Of a stretch of DNA of 45,130 nt, positions 1 through 45,130 are shown piece after piece (the stretch's first letter is position 1; each line of letters opens with the position of its first letter). The stretch is from Escherichia phage vB_EcoP_R4596. The notes under the pieces are model-generated. The model was given only the letters and a program-made list of their open reading frames with translations, ran no database searches and was not told the DNA's origin. Location of the stretch: the sequence record MK373771.1. One strand, written 5' to 3'. The translations under genes and the position numbers were made by a program.

Positions 1-285
1 TCTCGCCCTCGCCCTCGCCGGGTTGTCCCCATAGGGTAGCCTGAGGGAATCCGTCTCCGACGGGCAGGGCTGATGTACTCTTTGTACTAGCTTAGTAGTA
101 CACAAGGGCTGGCCTTTTGTTTTGCCGTGTACTAGTAAGGTGGAACGCTGTAGACGGCCTAGGACGGCCTAGGGAATGGCTTAGTGGCGGACAAGGTGAT
201 TGCCTTAGTGAAGCCTCTTAGCGCATTCCTGAGGCCATTCAGGGCGTTTATGAGGTATTGACAGGGTGTGCGTGGGTGTGGGCTA
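1..285. repeat. Left direct terminal repeat
   Basis: Bases 1-285 are identical to 44846-45130 by direct reading; the window ends inside the repeat, so its true length may be greater. Confidence 0.9.
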
Positions 286-289
286 TCTG

Positions 290-480
290 TTCGTTTCGTT
301 CACTCCGCTTGCGCTACGTTCACTCGCTCACGTGTACCTTAGGTTATTACTTGATGGATAGCTTAGGTTAGCCTTAGTGGATTACCTTAGTTATAACCTT
401 AGTGCTTAACTTAGTATTAGCTTAGTAGTGTACCTTAGTCAGTCTTAGTTTCTTCTCTTAGTGGTTGCATAGCTAAAGCT
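290..480. repeat. Array of short CTTAGT/CCTTAGT-like repeats next to the terminal repeat
   Basis: More than 12 irregularly spaced copies of (A/G)CCTTAGT(G/T) read directly; T7-like genomes carry short repeat arrays beside the terminal repeat. Confidence 0.6.
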
Positions 481-659
481 ATAAGATGCTAATAGGTCGC
501 GGTCGGTAGACCGCTAAAGAAAGAGAACAGTAATAAGATGCAGTAGGAGGAACACCAGAAACCTAGCCAACCTAAGCTATCCTAGCTCTATATCTATTGC
601 TTTTCCTTAGTCTAACACGTTAGACAACCTATCTTATTCTTAGTGATGGTAACTTAGTG

Positions 660-688
660 TTGACAAGATAATCTTAGTGTAATACTAT
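660..688 (+). promoter_or_regulatory. Candidate host sigma70 early promoter
   Basis: TTGACA (660-665), 17-bp spacer, TACTAT (683-688); lies upstream of the first early ORFs as for T7 A promoters. Confidence 0.45.
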
Positions 689-831
689 GCATCACGTAGG
701 CGGTGCTGAGGCACCTAGTAGCCAGCTAGTAAGGCATACGAAGAGACTAGCGCTTACATTGCTCTTTAACAATTTGCTTAGTGTAACCTATGTATGCCGT
801 GGTTAATTACTTATTGAATGAGGGATTAACT

Positions 832-1011
832 ATGACATTAAACAACCGTGAACTGTCCGTTCTCTTCACTATGTTGTGCTACATGATTCGTAACAACGAA
901 TTACTTACAGACGATGAGTTAGCCTTGTATCACCGCTTTCTTAACGAAGGTTGGACCGATACAGTTAATCAATACCGTAACATGATAGATGAGTTGAGGG
1001 AGGGTAAATAA
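832..1011 (+). CDS. Hypothetical early protein (59 aa from ATG 832; ORF track starts at 790)
   Basis: ORF with GAGGGA Shine-Dalgarno 6 nt upstream of ATG 832; no recognizable motif. Confidence 0.45.
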   Translation: MTLNNRELSVLFTMLCYMIRNNELLTDDELALYHRFLNEGWTDTVNQYRNMIDELREGK

Positions 1012-1235
1012 TGTATCAACATGAGGTATTCTTTGAATCAGCTAGCGAAGCTATTCGCTTCCGTGATGATATGATGCAAGCTGGTGTAGGCGTTGATGTG
1101 TATCACTATTTGATAGATTACGACACTGAATATCACCGAGTTACCTTAGTATCTGAGTATGACAACCAAGTCATTACTGAGTATCTAGGTAGTGAAGATT
1201 ATGATTACGATGAAGTAATCACGACAAATCTCTAA
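1011..1235 (+). CDS. Hypothetical acidic early protein (74 aa)
   Basis: ORF with strong GAGGGAGGG Shine-Dalgarno; start overlaps upstream stop (TAATG); Asp/Glu/Tyr-rich C-terminus. Confidence 0.5.
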   Translation: MYQHEVFFESASEAIRFRDDMMQAGVGVDVYHYLIDYDTEYHRVTLVSEYDNQVITEYLGSEDYDYDEVITTNL

Positions 1236-1243
1236 ATTAACTA

Positions 1244-1272
1244 TTGACAGCCACGGCATACAAGGTTACATT
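1244..1272 (+). promoter_or_regulatory. Candidate host sigma70 early promoter
   Basis: TTGACA (1244-1249), 17-bp spacer, TACATT (1267-1272). Confidence 0.4.
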
Positions 1273-1353
1273 AAGCACATAGCCGATAGGCAACGCTCTT
1301 TAACAATCTGGTTTGTGTCTTGATAGGCTAACTAACTAACTAAGGTAATTATT

Positions 1354-1464
1354 ATGAAAGGTTTAATTTGTGTAGAACGTATGGTCAATGGTAAACTTGA
1401 AATATTACCACTGGAAAACCAATCTAGCTTCAAAGAGTGGTATGGCTGTTTCTCACTGATTTAA
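1354..1464 (+). CDS. Small hypothetical early ORF (36 aa)
   Basis: ATG 1354 follows the CTAACTAACTAACTAA three-frame stop element and a weak AAGGT ribosome-binding site. Confidence 0.3.
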   Translation: MKGLICVERMVNGKLEILPLENQSSFKEWYGCFSLI

Positions 1465-1615
1465 GGTAAAGGCTGGCACTAGTCAGCCTATCAAGGCGCA
1501 AACCAAGCTCTTTAACAATTTGGATGGTAGCTTCTTAGTCTGGATAGGTTAAACCTAGGAGATTCTCTTGAGTCTCCTATAATGTAACCTAACTAACTAA
1601 ATGAGGATTAATAAC

Positions 1616-1975
1616 ATGGCTATGTCTAATATGACTTACTCTCAGGTTTACAACACCGCTCATGCTGCATTAGTTGAACGTATCTGGAATGATGATATTG
1701 ATTGTATCGATAACGCACATGATGCAATCCATGAGGTAGCGGACAGTGCTGTACCAATCTATTATGCTGACATCTTCTCAGTAATGGCGAGTGAGGGTAT
1801 TGATCACTTCTTCGAAGACTCCGGCCTGATGCCAGATACTAAGGATGTAACGGTCGTACTACAAGCCCGTATTTATGAACAACTCACCATTGATTTATGG
1901 GAACGTGTTCAAGATATGATTGTTGCGTACACCAATTACGCTGAGGATTCAGAAGAAGAAGAAGAGGAAGAATAA
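1616..1975 (+). CDS. ocr: Ocr-like DNA-mimic anti-restriction protein (T7 gp0.3 homolog, 119 aa)
   Basis: Translation MAMSNMTY...[44 protein letters not shown]...[15 protein letters not shown] plus poly-Glu tail matches T7 Ocr as recalled; GAGGA Shine-Dalgarno 8 nt before ATG 1616. Confidence 0.85.
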
Positions 1976-1977
1976 GG

Positions 1978-2091
1978 ATGGAAAAGCAATATAACTTTAT
2001 CTTTTCAGACGGTGTGACCCTGAAGTGTTCCCTGCGTTTCGCACAGATTCGCGAGGAAGTGCTAGGAACTACATACAAACTATTTAGCTGA
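1978..2091 (+). CDS. Small hypothetical ORF (37 aa)
   Basis: ATG immediately after the ocr stop, GAGGAAG upstream; no recognizable motif. Confidence 0.3.
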   Translation: MEKQYNFIFSDGVTLKCSLRFAQIREEVLGTTYKLFS

Positions 2092-2106
2092 CACTATAAG
2101 AGAGAG
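2081..2106 (+). promoter_or_regulatory. Divergent phage-RNAP promoter-like sequence
   Basis: TATTTAGCTGACACTATAAGAGAG resembles the ATTTACTGGACACTATAGAAG consensus but differs at the start site; followed by a 5' hairpin GGGCGCTCT-TGCG-AGAGTGCCC. Confidence 0.35.
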
Positions 2107-2166
2107 GGTTTAACAGGGCGCTCTTGCGAGAGTGCCCGATTAAATCAACTTAACGAGATATTAAAT

Positions 2167-2343
2167 ATGAAATACATACTGATTGCTATGTTTTCTGGCT
2201 TCATTGGCTATGCTGGTGCTTCTTATGACAACTACAGAAGTAAGCAATTGGCTGCTGAAAAGTGGGATAAAACCTATTTTGCTTGTATGAAACAAGGTAA
2301 TTTGATGCAAGATTGCATACTTAAAGCGCACAGCGAAGAGTGA
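2167..2343 (+). CDS. Small protein with hydrophobic signal-peptide-like N-terminus (58 aa)
   Basis: ORF MKYILIAMFSGFIGYAGASYD...; weak ribosome-binding site. Confidence 0.35.
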   Translation: MKYILIAMFSGFIGYAGASYDNYRSKQLAAEKWDKTYFACMKQGNLMQDCILKAHSEE

Positions 2344-2407
2344 TGAGCCTATAGCCTACTTAAGTGGGCTATGTGAACACCATTCATTAACTCAAAAGGT
2401 GACTATT

Positions 2408-3331
2408 ATGACTACTGAAAACACCCTCCTGTCTGTTCGTGAAGCTGCAACCGCTGAGATCAAGCAACACTTAGACAATATCGGCACTTCTTACATCAAA
2501 GTTGGCGCTTGTCTTAATGAGTTACGCGGTGACTTTGAAGGTCAAAAAGACTTTTTGGCTTATGTAGAATCAGAATTTGGAATCAAGAAAGCACAATGTT
2601 ACAAGCTGATGAGTGTAGCCCGTGTCTTTGAAGGCGATGATCGCTTTAAAGGCGTGGCGATGCGTGTAATGCTGGCACTTGTTCCTTTCGCTGATGAAAA
2701 TATCATCATGGAGAAAGCCGCAGAACTTGCCGCAGCGGGCAAGCTGGACACTAATGCCGTAAATGCCCTGATTGATCCTAAGAAAGAGACAAAGGCCGAG
2801 ACGGTACAATCTAAGGCTGAGGCGGTAAAACCGCAGGAGAATGCGACTGAGGCCGCAGAAACTATGCAAGGACATGCGACCTTTGAGGATTTCATCTTAG
2901 AGAAGGCGAAAGAGGAATTACAAAGTGTGCCGCCAGTAAGTGAGTCGGGTAACGACGAATCCGCACCGTGGGAAGATGAAAGCAAGCCGGAAGCGCCAAA
3001 GGCCGCGCCACTGGATAACACGGCTAACACGGAGAACGCCGCTATGTCTGGCCTACTGGCACAAATTAAGGCACTGACTGAGCAATTACAGGCAGCTAAC
3101 GACCGCATCGCCGCCCTAACCAGTGCACGGGAAAGTAAGAAAGCGGCTGCGCCTATGCTTCCGCAGTTTAAATCCTCTTGCTTCTACGCTCGCTTAGGCT
3201 TGAGCGCCGAGGAAGCAACGAAGAAAACAGCAGTGAATAAGGCACGCCGTGAACTGGTTAAACTAGGGTATGGTGAAGGTCATGAGGCATGGCCTTTGAT
3301 CTCTGAGGCAGTAGAAGAATTAACTAAGTAA
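2408..3331 (+). CDS. Hypothetical early protein (307 aa) with low-complexity acidic/Ala-rich centre and coiled-coil C-terminal region
   Basis: Long ORF; AAGGTGA Shine-Dalgarno before ATG 2408 (track begins at GTG 2399); no kinase or other motif recognized. Confidence 0.6.
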   Translation: MTTENTLLSVREAATAEIKQHLDNIGTSYIKVGACLNELRGDFEGQKDFLAYVESEFGIKKAQCYKLMSVARVFEGDDRFKGVAMRVMLALVPFADENIIMEKAAELAAAGKLDTNAVNALIDPKKETKAETVQSKAEAVKPQENATEAAETMQGHATFEDFILEKAKEELQSVPPVSESGNDESAPWEDESKPEAPKAAPLDNTANTENAAMSGLLAQIKALTEQLQAANDRIAALTSARESKKAAAPMLPQFKSSCFYARLGLSAEEATKKTAVNKARRELVKLGYGEGHEAWPLISEAVEELTK

Positions 3332-3394
3332 CCTTATCGGTGGCATCTTCTTAGGTGTCACCTATTAAGGTTTCTTTCACTAGGAGTAAACAAG

Positions 3395-6022
3395 ATGCAA
3401 GATCTACACGCTATTCAGCTTCAGCTTGAGGAAGAAATGTTTAACGGCGGTATTCGTCGCTTTGAAGCAGACCAACAACGCCAGATTGCATCAGGTAATG
3501 AATCCGATACGGCATGGAATCGTCGCCTGTTGTCGGAGCTTATCGCACCTATGGCGGAAGGTATTCAGGCTTATAAGGAAGCCTACGAAGGCAAGAAAGG
3601 ACGCGCACCGCGTGCACTGGCCTTCATTAACTGCGTAGAGAACGAAGTGGCAGCATATATCACGATGAAGATCGTAATGGATATGCTTAACACAGATGTA
3701 ACCTTGCAAGCCATAGCAATGAATGTAGCTGATCGCATCGAAGATCAAGTACGCTTCAGCAAGCTGGAAGGCCACGCCGCCAAATACTTTGAAAAAGTTA
3801 AGAAGTCACTCAAGGCAAGTAAGACTAAATCATATCGCCATGCGCACAACGTAGCGGTAGTGGCTGAGAAGTCAGTAGCTGACCGTGACACTGATTTCTC
3901 CCGCTGGGAGGCGTGGCCTAAAGATACCTTACTGCAAATCGGTATGACCTTGCTAGAAATACTGGAGAATAGCGTATTCTTCAATGGTCAACCTGTCTTC
4001 CTCCGCACCTTGCGCACTAATGGTGGCAAGCATGGTGTTTACTACTTACAGACCAGTGAGCACGTAGGGGAGTGGATTACAGCATTTAAAGAACATGTAG
4101 CGCAACTTAGTCCGGCCTATGCACCTTGCGTCATTCCTCCGCGCCCTTGGGTGTCCCCTTTTAATGGTGGGTTTCATACTGAGAAGGTGGCAAGTCGCAT
4201 CCGTTTGGTAAAAGGCAACCGTGAGCACGTCCGTAAGCTGACCAAAAAGCAAATGCCAGCAGTTTATAAGGCTGTTAATGCTTTACAGGCCACTAAGTGG
4301 CAAGTTAACAAAGAAGTTTTGCAGGTAGTAGAAGACGTTATCCGTCTCGACCTTGGTTATGGTGTACCTTCCTTTAAACCACTCATCGACCGCGAGAACA
4401 AGCCGGCTAACCCAGTGCCGTTAGAATTTCAACACTTGCGAGGCCGCGAACTGAAGGAAATGTTAACGCCGGAACAATGGCAAGCCTTCATCAACTGGAA
4501 AGGTGAATGCACCAAGCTGTATACCGCTGAGACTAAGCGCGGAAGTAAGTCGGCGGCAACCGTTCGCATGGTAGGACAAGCGCGCAAATACAGCCAGTTT
4601 GATGCGATTTATTTCGTGTATGCACTGGATAGCCGCTCACGCGTTTATGCGCAATCTAGCACACTCTCACCGCAATCAAACGACCTAGGCAAGGCGTTAC
4701 TGCGTTTTACCGAAGGGCAGCCGCTAAATAGCTCTGAGGCGCTTAAATGGTTTTTGGTGAACGGGGCGAATAACTGGGGTTGGGATAAGAAGACTTTCGA
4801 CGTGCGCACCGCTAACGTACTGGACGGCGAGTTTCAAGATATGTGCCGCGACATTGCAGCGGATCCTCTGACCTTTACTCAATGGGTAAATGCCGATTCA
4901 CCTTATGGATTCCTTGCATGGTGCTTTGAGTATGCTCGTTATTTGGATGCACTGGATGAAGGAACACAAGATCAGTTTGTGACGCATTTACCTGTTCATC
5001 AAGATGGTAGCTGTTCTGGCATCCAGCACTACAGTGCTATGCTACGCGACGAAGTGGGTGCGAAGGCGGTAAACCTTAAACCATCCGACTCGCCTCAAGA
5101 TATTTATGGAGCGGTTGCGCAGGTTGTTATCCAGAAGAACTACGCCTACATGAATGCAGATGATACAGAAACTTTCACATCTGGAAGCGTAACACTTACA
5201 GGTGCAGAACTGCGTAGCATGGCTAGTGCATGGGATATGATAGGTATCACTCGCGGCTTAACCAAAAAGCCGGTAATGACCTTGCCTTACGGATCCACAC
5301 GCTTAACCTGCCGTGAGTCAGTGATTGATTATATCGTTGATTTGGAAGAAAAAGAGGCACAAAGGGCTATTGCAGAAGGGCGGACGGCTAATCCGGTGCA
5401 CCCTTTTGACAATGACCGGAAAGACTATTTAACACCGGGTGCAGCTTACAACTATATGACGGCGTTAATTTGGCCTTCTATCTCTGAGGTTGTTAAAGCC
5501 CCTATAGTGGCAATGAAAATGATTCGCCAGCTTGCACGTTTCGCAGCTAAAAGGGATGAAGGATTAGAATACACCTTGCCAACTGGCTTCATCCTGCAAC
5601 AAAAGATAATGGCTACCGATATGCTTCGTGTATCCACTTGCTTGATGGGTGAAATCAAGATGAGTCTACAAATTGAAACGGATGTAGTGGATGAAACGGC
5701 AATGATGGGCGCTGCCGCTCCTAACTTTGTTCACGGTCACGATGCTAGTCACCTTATATTAACGGTATGTGACCTAGTGGATAAAGGTATTACCTCCATT
5801 GCAGTTATCCATGACTCTTTCGGTACTCATGCAGGCCGCACCGCAGACCTGCGGGATAGCTTAAGGGCAGAAATGGTGAAGATGTATCAAGGCCGTAACG
5901 CTTTACAACAATTGCTTGATGAGCATGAAGAGCGTTGGCTAGTAGATACTGGCATCCAAGTGCCAGAGCAAGGGGAGTTTAACCTTGAAGAGATATTAGT
6001 TTCTGACTATTGCTTCGCATAA
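3395..6022 (+). CDS. Single-subunit DNA-dependent RNA polymerase (T7 gp1-like, 875 aa)
   Basis: Motifs [38 protein letters not shown] and C-terminal ...DYCFA match the T7/SP6 RNAP family; GGAG ribosome-binding site. Confidence 0.97.
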
Positions 6023-8468: not shown

Positions 8469-8629
8469 TGGAAATTATTAAACCAGTATTGAATATCGGT
8501 ATTGAGATCCTATTCATGCTTGTGATCGCAGATTATGCTGCACGATATGGATTCAAGAAAGCTGTGAAACTTATCGTTGCATCTGGTTTTCTTATGTCAA
8601 TGTTCTTTATTGTAACACGTCTTATCTAG
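8468..8629 (+). CDS. Small hydrophobic membrane protein (53 aa)
   Basis: ATG overlaps the primase stop (TAATG); translation MEIIKPVLNIGIEILFMLVIADYAA... is hydrophobic. Confidence 0.4.
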   Translation: MEIIKPVLNIGIEILFMLVIADYAARYGFKKAVKLIVASGFLMSMFFIVTRLI

Positions 8630-8646
8630 TGTATTTATCAGGGCTT

Positions 8647-8662
8647 GTCTCACATGTGAGAC
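8647..8662. repeat. 16-bp perfect palindrome GTCTCACATGTGAGAC (copy c)
   Basis: Read directly; flanks extend the potential stem to about 12 bp. Confidence 0.9.
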
Positions 8663-8701
8663 AGGCTCTTATTAAGTACATTAAATAACTGGAGATTGAT
8701 T

Positions 8702-9653: not shown

Positions 9654-9840
9654 ACACAGCCTTAAGATGTTTGATGGTCATGAAGACCTGCAAGCACAAA
9701 TTACTAACCAAGCCTTCCTGTTTGCACAGTTAACTATGGCTGAAGCAAAGAAGAACAGCCTTACTCGTGAGCAGATTATCAAGGAAGGTAGCCGTGGTGT
9801 TACTCGTCGTACCAAGAACCACAGAAGTGGTGCTCGCTAG
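9643..9840 (+). CDS. Hypothetical protein (65 aa)
   Basis: ORF overlapping the upstream gene end; weak ribosome-binding site. Confidence 0.35.
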   Translation: MQNKHSLKMFDGHEDLQAQITNQAFLFAQLTMAEAKKNSLTREQIIKEGSRGVTRRTKNHRSGAR

Positions 9841-9857
9841 TCGATAAGTCAAGGGTT

Positions 9858-9873
9858 GTCTCACGTGTGAGAC
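9858..9873. repeat. Palindrome variant GTCTCACGTGTGAGAC (copy d, 15/16)
   Basis: One substitution in the central tetranucleotide; flanks AAGGG...CCTTT can extend the stem. Confidence 0.85.
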
Positions 9874-9998
9874 AGCCTTTCATCATATTGATTGGAGGTG
9901 CATTATGCCACGTGATTATGATTCTGATTGGGACTACTATGACTCAATGAATCCAAAACCCGAACGTTCAGATGATTACTACGAAACAGAGGCAATGT

Positions 9999-19196: not shown

Positions 19197-19325
19197 AGGA
19201 ATGGAGATGCTTGAGATGATTCTCAAGCCTTCTTCTCCGAAGGTGACTAAGACTCATGAAGAGTTAATCGTAGATGAAGTGAAGCGTTACATTATGGATT
19301 GTGTCAAGGCACAACTGGTAGTCCA

Positions 19326-19787
19326 ATGATACGTCAAGCATCTTTCTTAGATATACCTGAGATTATTAATCTAGGCGACAAGTATGTAGAAGAGGAAGTT
19401 AAGGTAGTAGCACACCACTCTCCTTCATGGAATGCAGAACAAAGCGCAGCAAACCTGTGTGCATCTCTTGTCCGAGATGATTTATTCTTATGGGTTGCTG
19501 TAGATGAGGGAAGCATTGTAGGATTCCTATGGGCTGGGTATCATGACTTAGCACCTTGGACACCAGTGCGTGTTGCATCTGATATTCTTTTCTACATCGT
19601 ACCAGAGAAGCGTGGCACTCTCTTAGGAATGAGACTTATCAAAGCCTATAAGCAATGGGCTTTTGAGAAGGAATGCGCTGAAGTGAGACTGTCTATTGCC
19701 TCTGGTATCAATGAAGAGCGTGTCGGGCGTATGTATGAGCGGTTAGGCTTTGAGACGTTCGGCACTGTGTATAACCTGAAACTTTAA
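19326..19787 (+). CDS. GNAT-family N-acetyltransferase-like protein
   Basis: Pattern VGFLWAGYHD...RGTLLGMRLIKAYKQWAFEKECAEVRL...YERLGFE typical of GNAT folds; start uncertain (ATG 19326, or 19299 per track). Confidence 0.6.
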   Translation: MIRQASFLDIPEIINLGDKYVEEEVKVVAHHSPSWNAEQSAANLCASLVRDDLFLWVAVDEGSIVGFLWAGYHDLAPWTPVRVASDILFYIVPEKRGTLLGMRLIKAYKQWAFEKECAEVRLSIASGINEERVGRMYERLGFETFGTVYNLKL

Positions 19788-19796
19788 GGAGGCAAT

Positions 19797-20006
19797 ATGG
19801 GTGTCGTGAAGAAGGCATTTAAAGCAATTGGTCTTGCACCTGAGACGCCGAAAATTGAGGCGGCTAAGACTCCGGCACAACAGTTAGCGCGTGAACCGGA
19901 GACTACGGCAGAGGATATTACATTAGGCCAAGATGATAGCGCAACGGCTGCGGCACGTGGTAAGCGTGGACTGATTCGTCCAGTGGCATCGAGCTTAGGG
20001 GTTTAA
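19797..20006 (+). CDS. Small virion-associated protein, possibly gp6.7-like (69 aa)
   Basis: AAGGAGG Shine-Dalgarno; located just before the portal gene; composition loosely like T7 gp6.7. Confidence 0.45.
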   Translation: MGVVKKAFKAIGLAPETPKIEAAKTPAQQLAREPETTAEDITLGQDDSATAAARGKRGLIRPVASSLGV

Positions 20007-20205
20007 TATGATGCAAGACACCGACCTTGAGTATGGTCTCCGGCACAACAGTTAGCGCGTGAACCGGAGACTACGGCAGAGGATATTACATTAGGCCAAG
20101 ATGATAGCGCAACGGCTGCGGCACGTGGTAAGCGTGGACTGATTCGTCCAGTGGCATCGAGCTTAGGGGTTTAATATGATGCAAGACACCGACCTTGAGT
20201 ATGGT
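19870..20205. repeat. Perfect tandem duplication, 2 x 168 bp (19870-20037 and 20038-20205)
   Basis: Direct reading; the unit spans the 3' end of the 69-aa gene and the first 10 codons of the portal gene. Confidence 0.95.
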
Positions 20206-27844: not shown

Positions 27845-30787
27845 ATGGCAATTGAACGTCAAGCTGTACAAGGACTAGAAAGAGTACAGTCAAGGGGCGC
27901 GCCAACACCTATGTCTTTCACACCACGACAAGTGAGTATCTCAGGGGGCGCGGATGCCTCCGGTAGTAGATTTTTGGAAGACTTAGTAAACGCTGCAAGT
28001 AGTGTGGCTGATGTCACTACTGCTATCCTTAATCAGCAAGTAGAAGACGATAAGGTTCGCCAGATGGATAGGGCTTTGTCTGGCATGATGCCTTCTGAGG
28101 ATGCTACGGTAGGTGGTGCTCGTGCGCATATGCTGGTTAGTTTACAAAATGATGTAATCGCACAGACAACTGCGCTACAAGTAGAAGCACAGCGATTTCA
28201 AGGTAGTGACGAGGATTGGGAAAACTATGTAGTTCAATCTCGTAATGAGGTACAAAATAGGTTATGGCAAAGTTATCCAGAGCTTCGTGGTGACAAAGAT
28301 TCTATGAGACTTGTCACTAACGCGTTCATGGAGCAGCAACCTAGAATTACTGCAACTAGAGCAGAGGCTAAACTTCGTCAAGAAGAAGAAGCACGAATGC
28401 AATCTATGCAGTCTCGTATTATCATGGCTACACGGGACGTAGCGCCAGATGCCACTGGTGCAGCACTCATCCAGTTACAAAAAGAAGCACTGGCGATGGG
28501 TCTTAGTAAACCTGAGTTTGATCAGATGGTTGCTAAGATTGCATCTGACAGAGCGGCAGTAGGAGATGATAGTCTTATTCAGGGAACCAAAGCACTGGTG
28601 GATGATAAGGGTGTCTCTTTGTATGACCGTGTTGGTGCTTTGCAAACTGGAGAGATTCAAGCTAACAGAGCTTGGGCTGCGCAGAATCAGGTTGCCCTCT
28701 TTGAGAAGAAGGATGCAGCTATAAAGGCATTCGATGCAGGGCAACTTACTCGTGAAGAGTTACTTCAGGTGATGCAGAATCACAATGAATTGACTGGTGG
28801 TACTGCTTGGTCTGATAGCGAGATCAAGGCTATCTTCGATAGGCAAGCTAAGGCTAATGCAGAGAAAGCAAAGCTCGAAGATCTTATTGCACGAGGTGAA
28901 TCTGGGTCGCCTTTAGGTTTACAGGATATTAGTAAGGATGACAGAAAATCCTATGCTGAAGCCTTAGTTAGTACCTACACTAAGTTGGCAGAAGATGAAA
29001 TTGCCCGTACTGGTGCAACGGGAGAACAGGCTGAAGCTATTCGCGGTAGGTATGAGCAGATGCGTTATCTTAAATTAGGGCAACAACTTATTGAAGACCC
29101 AATCATTAAGGAAAGATATTCGTCGCTTATGCAATTATCCTCTGCCAACCTTAAAGATATGAATGTTGAGCCTGAAGCATTACAGACCATCATGCGAGCG
29201 CGGGACTCTATTCCAGAGGATGCACGTCGTGCTGTCATGGGAGACAAAGAGTATGCCTTTGTAGAGAACTACGACCTAGCAACTCGCATGGGGTATAACG
29301 CAGGTCAAGCTATTGAGTTTGCACAGAATGCCTCTCGTGGAGAGAAGCTACAAGGTTCTGTACTTAAAGAACTGAATGATGATGTAGATGGAGTTGTAAG
29401 TGATGTGGCAGGAGGTAGTTGGCTTACTCGTGGCGATAATATGAGTGAGATGGGTCGTGACATTATGATGGAGGAGGCAAGTACAATTGCGAGAGCAATG
29501 AAGGTTGCAGGTCATAATAATGACACGATTAAACGTCATCTTAAATCCTATTTGACGAGCCAGTATACACAGTTATCAGAGGGCTTCTTCACCCAAGGTG
29601 TTCTGGTGAAAGGTGATGTACGAACATTAGGTGACACTATAGGAGTAAACCAGAATGACCTTCCTATGGCGCTACGTCAATATATGGATAACAACAAGCA
29701 AGCACTTCTTGATGCATCAGGTGGCTTAGAAGAGGGTGATTTGTATTTTGATGTAGATGCGCAGCGGGGACTCTTTACCATACGTGCAGGGTCTGGTCGT
29801 GTACCTGTTACGCAGGCAATGCCTTTGTCTGAAATCAAAGGGCAGTCCTTGCTTAAGCAAAGATATGATGCAGAGGTTAAAGCCCGTGATGAGGGGCGTA
29901 AGAATTTTGAAGCACAGCAAATGAGGATGTGGGGCGCAGGTGGCTACCAAGCACAACCACCTGCAAAGACTACAGCCAAAACTGTAGGCTCCCGTGGGAT
30001 TGCTGACTTCTTAATGTCACCTGCCTTTGCATCAGGCGAGAATCTACCAGCAAACTTTGAGTTTGGATATAAGAGGAATAATATGGACTTCTACAATTAT
30101 GTAGCCAAGATGGAGAATAATGCCAATGTGGGCTTTGACCGAGTAGCTGGTGTTTATACACCATACAAAGATGCACATGGTCAATCTGTCGGGTACGGTC
30201 ACTTCCTTACTACTGAAGAGAAGAAGAACGGATACATTATGATTGGTACAGAGAAAGTGCCATTCACTCCGGGACAATCTCAATTAACACCAGAACGAGC
30301 CATGCGCCTTCTACAGCAAGACTTGAAGAGTCATGTGCCAAACACTTCAGGGTGGGCTGTTCCATTCGAAGAGATGCACCCAGGTGTTCAGCGTGGCCTT
30401 ATGGACTTGTCCTATAATTTAGGCAAAGGAGGTATCCAGAATGCACCTAAAGCCTATGCTGCGTTTAAGGCTGGCAAGTTTACTGATGGATTTATTGAGA
30501 TGTTATCTACTGCATCTACTGAAGGTAAGCGTAGTACTGGGTTGTTGGTTCGTAGGGCAGAAGCATACAACCTTGCACAGAGTGGAGGTGCTATTCCTAA
30601 GATTAGTGAAGTAGAGACACGAGCCGATGGGTCTATGTATGTTAAGTTTGCAGGACAGATGTCAGAGGCTTTCGTAAATAAATCAATCTACAATCAGATT
30701 GGTAAGGATGGATGGCTGCAAGTGTACCCTCCAAAACAAGGTGTACTTGCACCTAACACCAAGATTGGTAGAATCAAACTAAGCTAG
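27845..30787 (+). CDS. Internal virion protein with C-terminal lysozyme-like (GH24) domain
   Basis: Position; C-terminal MENNANVGFDRVAGVYTPYKDAHGQSVGYGHFLT...GVQRGLMDLSYNLGKGG resembles the T4-lysozyme Glu/Asp/Thr core as recalled. Confidence 0.75.
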   Translation: MAIERQAVQGLERVQSRGAPTPMSFTPRQVSISGGADASGSRFLEDLVNAASSVADVTTAILNQQVEDDKVRQMDRALSGMMPSEDATVGGARAHMLVSLQNDVIAQTTALQVEAQRFQGSDEDWENYVVQSRNEVQNRLWQSYPELRGDKDSMRLVTNAFMEQQPRITATRAEAKLRQEEEARMQSMQSRIIMATRDVAPDATGAALIQLQKEALAMGLSKPEFDQMVAKIASDRAAVGDDSLIQGTKALVDDKGVSLYDRVGALQTGEIQANRAWAAQNQVALFEKKDAAIKAFDAGQLTREELLQVMQNHNELTGGTAWSDSEIKAIFDRQAKANAEKAKLEDLIARGESGSPLGLQDISKDDRKSYAEALVSTYTKLAEDEIARTGATGEQAEAIRGRYEQMRYLKLGQQLIEDPIIKERYSSLMQLSSANLKDMNVEPEALQTIMRARDSIPEDARRAVMGDKEYAFVENYDLATRMGYNAGQAIEFAQNASRGEKLQGSVLKELNDDVDGVVSDVAGGSWLTRGDNMSEMGRDIMMEEASTIARAMKVAGHNNDTIKRHLKSYLTSQYTQLSEGFFTQGVLVKGDVRTLGDTIGVNQNDLPMALRQYMDNNKQALLDASGGLEEGDLYFDVDAQRGLFTIRAGSGRVPVTQAMPLSEIKGQSLLKQRYDAEVKARDEGRKNFEAQQMRMWGAGGYQAQPPAKTTAKTVGSRGIADFLMSPAFASGENLPANFEFGYKRNNMDFYNYVAKMENNANVGFDRVAGVYTPYKDAHGQSVGYGHFLTTEEKKNGYIMIGTEKVPFTPGQSQLTPERAMRLLQQDLKSHVPNTSGWAVPFEEMHPGVQRGLMDLSYNLGKGGIQNAPKAYAAFKAGKFTDGFIEMLSTASTEGKRSTGLLVRRAEAYNLAQSGGAIPKISEVETRADGSMYVKFAGQMSEAFVNKSIYNQIGKDGWLQVYPPKQGVLAPNTKIGRIKLS
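29624..29646 (+). promoter_or_regulatory. Candidate intragenic phage-RNAP promoter
   Basis: CATTAGGTGACACTATAGGAG matches the SP6-type core TTAGGTGACACTATAG. Confidence 0.4.
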
Positions 30788-30804
30788 TGGTATACTCAAG
30801 GTTT

Positions 30805-30820
30805 GTCTCACATGTGAGAC
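30805..30820. repeat. 16-bp perfect palindrome GTCTCACATGTGAGAC (copy f)
   Basis: Read directly; between two internal virion protein genes; flanks AAGG...CCTT and a following TTTATGAAT shared with the hairpin at 12648. Confidence 0.9.
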
Positions 30821-30854
30821 ATGCCTTTATGAATGACACTGACTAGGAGGTAAC

Positions 30855-44845: not shown

Positions 44846-45130
44846 TCTCGCCCTCGCCCTCGCCGGGTTGTCCCCATAGGGTAGCCTGAGGGAATCCGTC
44901 TCCGACGGGCAGGGCTGATGTACTCTTTGTACTAGCTTAGTAGTACACAAGGGCTGGCCTTTTGTTTTGCCGTGTACTAGTAAGGTGGAACGCTGTAGAC
45001 GGCCTAGGACGGCCTAGGGAATGGCTTAGTGGCGGACAAGGTGATTGCCTTAGTGAAGCCTCTTAGCGCATTCCTGAGGCCATTCAGGGCGTTTATGAGG
45101 TATTGACAGGGTGTGCGTGGGTGTGGGCTA
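44846..45130. repeat. Right direct terminal repeat (identical to 1-285)
   Basis: Direct reading; truncated by the window end. Confidence 0.9.

Follow-up and report, generated by a model that had tools for sequence, protein, structure and literature searches.

A probable gene for the DNA-mimic anti-restriction protein Ocr (gp0.3) in the early region of a Vectrevirus coliphage

We conclude with high confidence that positions 1616-1975 of the DNA analysed here encode Ocr (gp0.3), the DNA-mimic anti-restriction protein, in a Vectrevirus coliphage. The encoded protein aligns with T7 Ocr from end to end, and the gene is intact and conserved among close relatives. Homology further suggests that expression, dimerization, and DNA mimicry would proceed as in T7.

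Results

Genome context of ocr

The window, by which we mean the whole stretch of DNA that was analysed (45,130 bp), carries exact direct repeats of 285 bp at both ends (1-285 and 44846-45130). Over the first 4 kb, it shares 91-98% identity with many K1-5/K1E-like coliphages of the genus Vectrevirus (Autographiviridae, Molineuxvirinae). An internal stretch of 25 kb, aligned along 98% of its length, showed 95.5% identity to vB_EcoP-G3A1 and relatives. Based on the terminal repeats and the K1-5/K1E-like identity, we regard the window as a complete linear genome from the well-sampled genus Vectrevirus (K1-5/K1E-like, SP6-related). No record of the phage collection was found to be identical to the window.

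An initial annotation had placed a homologue of T7 gene 0.3 at positions 1616-1975 and described it as the first substantial early gene. The genes that define its surroundings are as follows.

832-1011, plus strand: first ORF before ocr; 59 aa; conserved PHROG family; annotated K1-5 gp1
1011-1235, plus strand: second ORF before ocr; 74 aa; conserved PHROG family; annotated K1-5 gp2
1354-1464, plus strand: third ORF before ocr; 36 aa; without a PHROG match
1616-1975, plus strand: ocr gene (gp0.3 homologue); 119 aa, followed by the stop codon TAA at 1973-1975
3395-6022, plus strand: phage RNA polymerase gene, downstream of ocr

The coordinates and the description of ocr proved correct. The gene starts 1.6 kb from the left genome end and is the homologue of K1-5 gp3. 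It is the first ORF of more than 100 aa and lies in the early region, and to this extent it can be called the first substantial early gene; it is nevertheless the fourth ORF from the left end, being preceded by three small ones. Two minus-strand ORFs that overlap the locus (1626-1757 and 1884-2078) were dismissed as purely mechanical, as all family-assigned ORFs within positions 1-6022 are located on the plus strand.

An ORF of 307 aa (2408-3331), a homologue of K1-5 gp6, is located between ocr and the RNA polymerase gene, where T7 encodes the gp0.7 kinase. Its product strongly matched only PHROG 4571, a family of unknown function (E = 8e-131), and gave no match in Pfam or NCBIfam. We regard it as a conserved early protein and as a candidate host-takeover or anti-defence factor.

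The ocr product belongs to the Ocr family

The translated ocr product matched the Pfam family PF08684, "DNA mimic ocr", with an E value of 3.6e-43 and a score of 146.6 bits, the gathering cut-off being 25 bits. The match covered profile positions 1-100 of 101, and PF08684 was the only family retrieved in the Pfam search. The product also matched PHROG 2568, "ocr-like anti-restriction" (E = 7.4e-49), and the T7 Ocr chain 1s7z_A (E = 1.6e-41), the latter over residues 1-117 of both proteins. The T7 sequence that was matched is shared by 1s7z and nine other PDB entries, among them 6r9b and 6r9g. A search of NCBIfam returned no model matching Ocr. In the BLASTP alignment to T7 Ocr, 71 of 102 residues (70%) were identical, without a single gap (E = 1e-48), which is far above significance. 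The claim of a clear T7 gp0.3 homologue is thus fully borne out.

Start codon, leader RNA, and early transcription

The elements that surround the coding region are listed below.

660-688, plus strand: sigma-70-like early promoter (TTGACA, 17 nt, TACTAT; 10 of 12 consensus matches)
1244-1272, plus strand: sigma-70-like early promoter, the nearest upstream of ocr (TTGACA, 17 nt, TACATT; 10 of 12 consensus matches)
1507-1518, plus strand: third copy of the boxA-like motif GCTCTTTAACAA; the other copies are at 761-772 and 1295-1306
1531-1606, plus strand: predicted leader RNA hairpin, just upstream of ocr
1589-1600, plus strand: three-frame stop CTAACTAACTAA, with TAA at 1590, 1594, and 1598, one per frame
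1603-1607, plus strand: Shine-Dalgarno-like GAGGA, 8 nt before the ATG at 1616; read directly from the sequence
2088-2103, plus strand: first SP6/K1-5-type phage RNA polymerase promoter-like site, CTGACACTATAAGAGA, downstream of ocr

The mechanically longest ORF begins five codons before position 1616, with an ATG at 1601 (MRINN-MAMS...). This start was rejected; it abuts the stop cluster and lacks a Shine-Dalgarno sequence. The ATG at 1616 is judged to be the better start because it follows GAGGA at a distance of 8 nt and reproduces exactly the N-terminus of T7 Ocr, MAMSNMTY. The GAGG core is kept in the aligned T7 and K1-5 leaders. Both the ribosome-binding site and the three-frame stop, which the initial annotation had described in front of the gene, are real. 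In the leader hairpin, the stop cluster makes up the 3' arm. Its motif recurs in front of the 36-aa ORF (at 1326-1345) and ahead of ocr in Salmonella phage UAB_Phi78.

Both sigma-70-like promoters, whose -35 hexamers (TTGACA) are perfect, are consensus matches only, and the total number of such sites in the window does not exceed the shuffle expectation. The promoter at 1244-1272 is near-identical to TTGACAACCACGGCTTACAAGGTTACATTAAGCA, which is located directly upstream of ocr in UAB_Phi78, a phage of another genus. Core matches to SP6/K1-5-type promoters occur six times in the window, with 0.63 expected, and the site at 2088-2103 is identical in K1-5. Because this first phage-type promoter lies downstream of ocr, the gene appears to be readable by host RNA polymerase alone, as in T7.

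The motif GCTCTTTAACAA, which we take to be the rrn-type boxA consensus, is present in three exact copies, each upstream of an early ORF. By chance, 0.31 copies were expected, and none of 100 shuffles contained at least three. T7 has the same motif, GCTCTTTAACAATCTGG, in front of its gene 0.3 (about 789-805), and the variant GTTCTTTAACAA precedes ocr in UAB_Phi78. These boxA-like motifs may recruit host antitermination factors to the early transcripts.

The hairpin at 1531-1606 has a minimum free energy of -30.6 kcal/mol (z = -3.67), and none of 200 shuffled sequences folded as well. Its position matches that of the T7 RNase III site R0.3, and we infer that RNase III may process the transcript there. 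In UAB_Phi78, the leader of ocr is likewise predicted to fold into an equivalent hairpin, whose inner stem differs. Of the three leaders folded, only that of ocr contains a significant hairpin; those preceding the first ORF (773-830) and the 36-aa ORF (1307-1352) folded no better than shuffles. An Rfam scan of positions 1-3500 (E up to 1) returned no match, including for the leader hairpin and the boxA-like motifs.

A second stop cluster, CTAACTAACTAACTAA, together with an AAGG ribosome-binding site, was observed in front of the 36-aa ORF, the region as a whole spanning 1326-1464. This ORF is unannotated in K1-5 and hypothetical in 101101UKE1. In UAB_Phi78, the 1244-type promoter directly precedes ocr. 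Together with the second boxA copy, the module of the 36-aa ORF looks like a duplicated leader unit placed between the 1244 promoter and ocr.

Charge, dimer interface, and target contacts

The window Ocr contains 28 acidic (Asp and Glu) and 4 basic (Lys and Arg) residues and has a pI of 4.05, whereas wild-type T7 Ocr has 34 and 6, respectively. Of the 34 acidic positions in T7 Ocr, 24 are still acidic in the window Ocr, and two new ones have been gained. In total, the window Ocr has six acidic residues fewer. In an alignment of eight Ocr homologues, 12 columns are acidic in every member. Roberts et al. counted about 15 acidic residues common to Ocr homologues and found that far fewer than 34 are needed, T7 Ocr keeping its activity despite many substitutions of acidic residues (PMC3439906).

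Residues F54 and L82 of the dimer interface (full-length numbering) are identical to those of T7 Ocr, and dimerization is therefore predicted from the sequence. Mutation of either F54 or L82 allows T7 to escape PARIS, and the L82R exchange renders Ocr monomeric (PMC10802264). The T7 Ocr residues that contact BrxX were taken from PMC11317158. Nine of these 11 core residues are conserved in the window Ocr (Y49, Y50, S59, I62, D63, S69, K76, Q83, and W95), the two replacements being H48 to I and E65 to F. The latter exchange also affects the acidic patch formed by E60, D63, E65, E67, and D68 (59-67 in mature numbering), of which the other four residues are retained. According to Roberts et al., this patch is important, but activity was abolished only by combined patch mutations (PMC3439906). 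For this reason, the loss of E65 alone would probably not matter.

The C-terminal 17 residues differ from those of T7 Ocr, and the tail ends in a run of seven glutamates. An AlphaFold2 single-sequence model of the window Ocr was too poor (pLDDT 44.5, pTM 0.27) and was discarded. We infer a DNA-like fold, a bent rod corresponding to ~24 bp of B-DNA, solely from the 70% ungapped identity to 1s7z. T7 Ocr blocks type I restriction-modification (R-M) and BREX (PMC3439906, PMC7261183, PMC11317158), and the window Ocr would be expected to bind and inhibit type I R-M enzymes and the BREX protein BrxX/PglX likewise.

Relatives, selection, and two allele classes

A tblastn search of the phage collection with the window Ocr matched 571 records, 45 of them with at least 90% identity. 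Near relatives carry the labels "protein Ocr", "Overcome classical restriction gp0.3", and "ocr-like anti-restriction", and a paper from 2026 describes Ocr as conserved among Vectrevirus phages (PMC13005862). The presence of Ocr in this phage group is thus already known and ordinary. In some public records (e.g., OR424384.1, KP791807.1, and MH400309.1), the ocr homologue is labelled "protein kinase" or "receptor binding protein kinase". Evidently, gene 0.3 was mistaken for gene 0.7 in annotation and the error was propagated.

For four window-type alleles with 90-96% protein identity, Nei-Gojobori dN/dS values ranged from 0.02 to 0.16, with dS reaching about 1.0. This indicates clear purifying selection on the window-type ocr, which argues that the gene is functional and not a remnant. 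A recent transfer from T7 was considered and rejected; the identity band of 80-90% is empty, the nearest outgroup is at ~71%, and dS relative to T7 is saturated.

Comparison with K1-5 revealed a second type of ocr at the same locus. In the 132 nt aligned ahead of the start region, the left flank is 100% identical; the right flank, counted from the acidic tail, is 94% identical. The coding body between them (window 1613-1951, K1-5 1575-1880) has a nucleotide identity of 57%. The K1-5 gp3/K1F gp0.3 type shares the Pfam family and the locus with the window Ocr, but K1-5 gp3 is only 45% identical at the protein level over the full length and 61% over residues 18-94. K1-5 Ocr is 82% identical to that of K1F (Kayfunavirus), and at least 90% identity to the K1-5 allele was found in 24 records. 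The window Ocr, in turn, groups with T7 (67%) and UAB_Phi78 (64%). Judging from these alignments, Vectrevirus has two old ocr allele classes, one T7-like and one K1F-like, which appear to have been exchanged as a precise cassette.

Other sequence features of the genome

A perfect tandem duplication of 168 bp (19870-20037 and 20038-20205) follows an acetyltransferase-like ORF (19299-19787) and reaches into the portal gene, which starts at 20176 and whose first 30 nt belong to the second copy. In the close relatives G3A1, CC1, and vB_Ro_P3a, a query of 901 nt aligned to 733 nt, corresponding to one copy each. The duplication therefore seems to be private to the window genome, and it either arose very recently or is an artefact of the assembly.

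The hexamer CTTAGT is found 16 times on the plus strand of the first 800 bp (91-782). It is densest at 373-462, where eight copies are spaced by 10-13 nt, and the genome contains 59 copies in total, compared with 30.6 expected. The array resembles the short repeat arrays that lie beside the terminal repeat of T7-like genomes. Furthermore, a conserved element centred on the palindrome TTGTCTCACATGTGAGACA occurs in three copies (8621-8687, 9832-9898, and 30779-30845) that are 64-73% identical across 67 nt. Such an element might terminate transcription as a hairpin, mark a processing site, or bind a protein.

Discussion

By homology to T7, host RNA polymerase would transcribe ocr from the sigma-70 promoters at ~660 and ~1244 while the genome is still entering the cell, and processing of the mRNA would probably take place at the leader hairpin (1531-1606). 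The protein is predicted to dimerize via the F54/L82 interface into a bent rod that resembles B-DNA, with the carboxylates of its Asp and Glu residues imitating the DNA phosphates. Given the location of the gene in the early region, Ocr synthesis would precede exposure of the remainder of the genome.

A member of the Ocr family might instead serve chiefly to shut off host transcription, acting as a DNA mimic that binds host RNA polymerase, as has been reported for T7 Ocr. The PDB entries 6r9b and 6r9g share the matched T7 Ocr sequence, and Ye et al. are cited in PMC13005862 in this connection. Roberts et al., in a speculation, derive Ocr from a protein that bound RNA polymerase (PMC3439906). 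Moreover, no gp0.7-type kinase is recognisable in the window downstream of ocr and ahead of the RNA polymerase gene; the 307-aa ORF located there has no Pfam match. We nonetheless consider a chiefly transcriptional role improbable. The clear phenotype of T7 upon loss of gene 0.3 is sensitivity to type I R-M and BREX (PMC7261183). The two roles are not mutually exclusive, and nothing in the sequence sets them apart.

The lower acidic content (28 residues versus 34 in T7 Ocr) and the replacement of E65 and H48 might also be read as signs of decay, ocr then being a neutral remnant from which an active inhibitor is no longer made. This reading has very little to recommend it and is hardly credible to us. 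The frame is intact, the ribosome-binding site is good, copies with at least 90% identity occur in 45 phage records, and the low dN/dS values at a dS of up to about 1.0 contradict it. In addition, T7 Ocr tolerates many acidic substitutions (PMC3439906). We retain the assignment of 1616-1975 as an ocr gene, probably with an anti-restriction function.

What maintains the two allele classes is a separate matter. They may be exchangeable cassettes that are kept by selection from host defences, either through escape from a PARIS-type sensor or through an altered target range. The latter comes into consideration because the BrxX contacts H48 and E65 are replaced in the window allele. We put this idea forward as a speculation that is rather unlikely to be right. 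If it were true, the ocr allele carried by a phage would predict the defences that it overcomes or triggers. Exchange of ocr alleles within one genus fits a fast turnover of early anti-defence genes.

For the phage itself, the assignment means that a K1-5-like phage carries the standard counter-defence of the Autographiviridae against type I restriction and BREX, and the value of the result lies chiefly in a correct annotation. The statement in the initial annotation that the phage meets such defences in its host is reasonable but generic. The presence of ocr would be useful when therapeutic phages are chosen or host range is predicted, and a phage that carries Ocr could trigger PARIS-type Ocr sensors.

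Comparison with known systems

Anti-restriction functions are also exerted by the SAM lyase gp0.3 of phage T3, whose gene occupies the same genome position as ocr, and by the DNA mimics ArdA and ArdB. These proteins are not known to be related in sequence to the window Ocr (PMC11317158). The Ocr proteins of other Vectrevirus phages (e.g., vB-Eco-KMB14, vB_EcoP-101101UKE1, 6949, EEc4, and K1E) represent the same allele at the same locus and are annotated as "protein Ocr". That of vB-Eco-KMB14 is 100% identical over residues 1-112, and that of 101101UKE1 is 96% identical. They deviate from the window Ocr only by a few substitutions and by the length of the terminal glutamate run.

The reference system is T7 gp0.3 Ocr (PDB 1S7Z). 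The two phages belong to different subfamilies, the window phage to the Molineuxvirinae and T7 to the Studiervirinae. Three small ORFs precede the window gene, which starts at nt 1616, compared with about nt 925 in T7. At the protein level, the differences comprise H48 to I, L64 to H, and E65 to F as well as the diverged residues 96-119. Both proteins are collinear over their full length, with 70% identity and no indels over the folded core (residues 1-102), and their central segments are almost identical. Both are very acidic, carry F54 and L82, and end in an acidic tail. Finally, each gene belongs to the early region and is preceded by a boxA-like motif, a hairpin, and a stop cluster.
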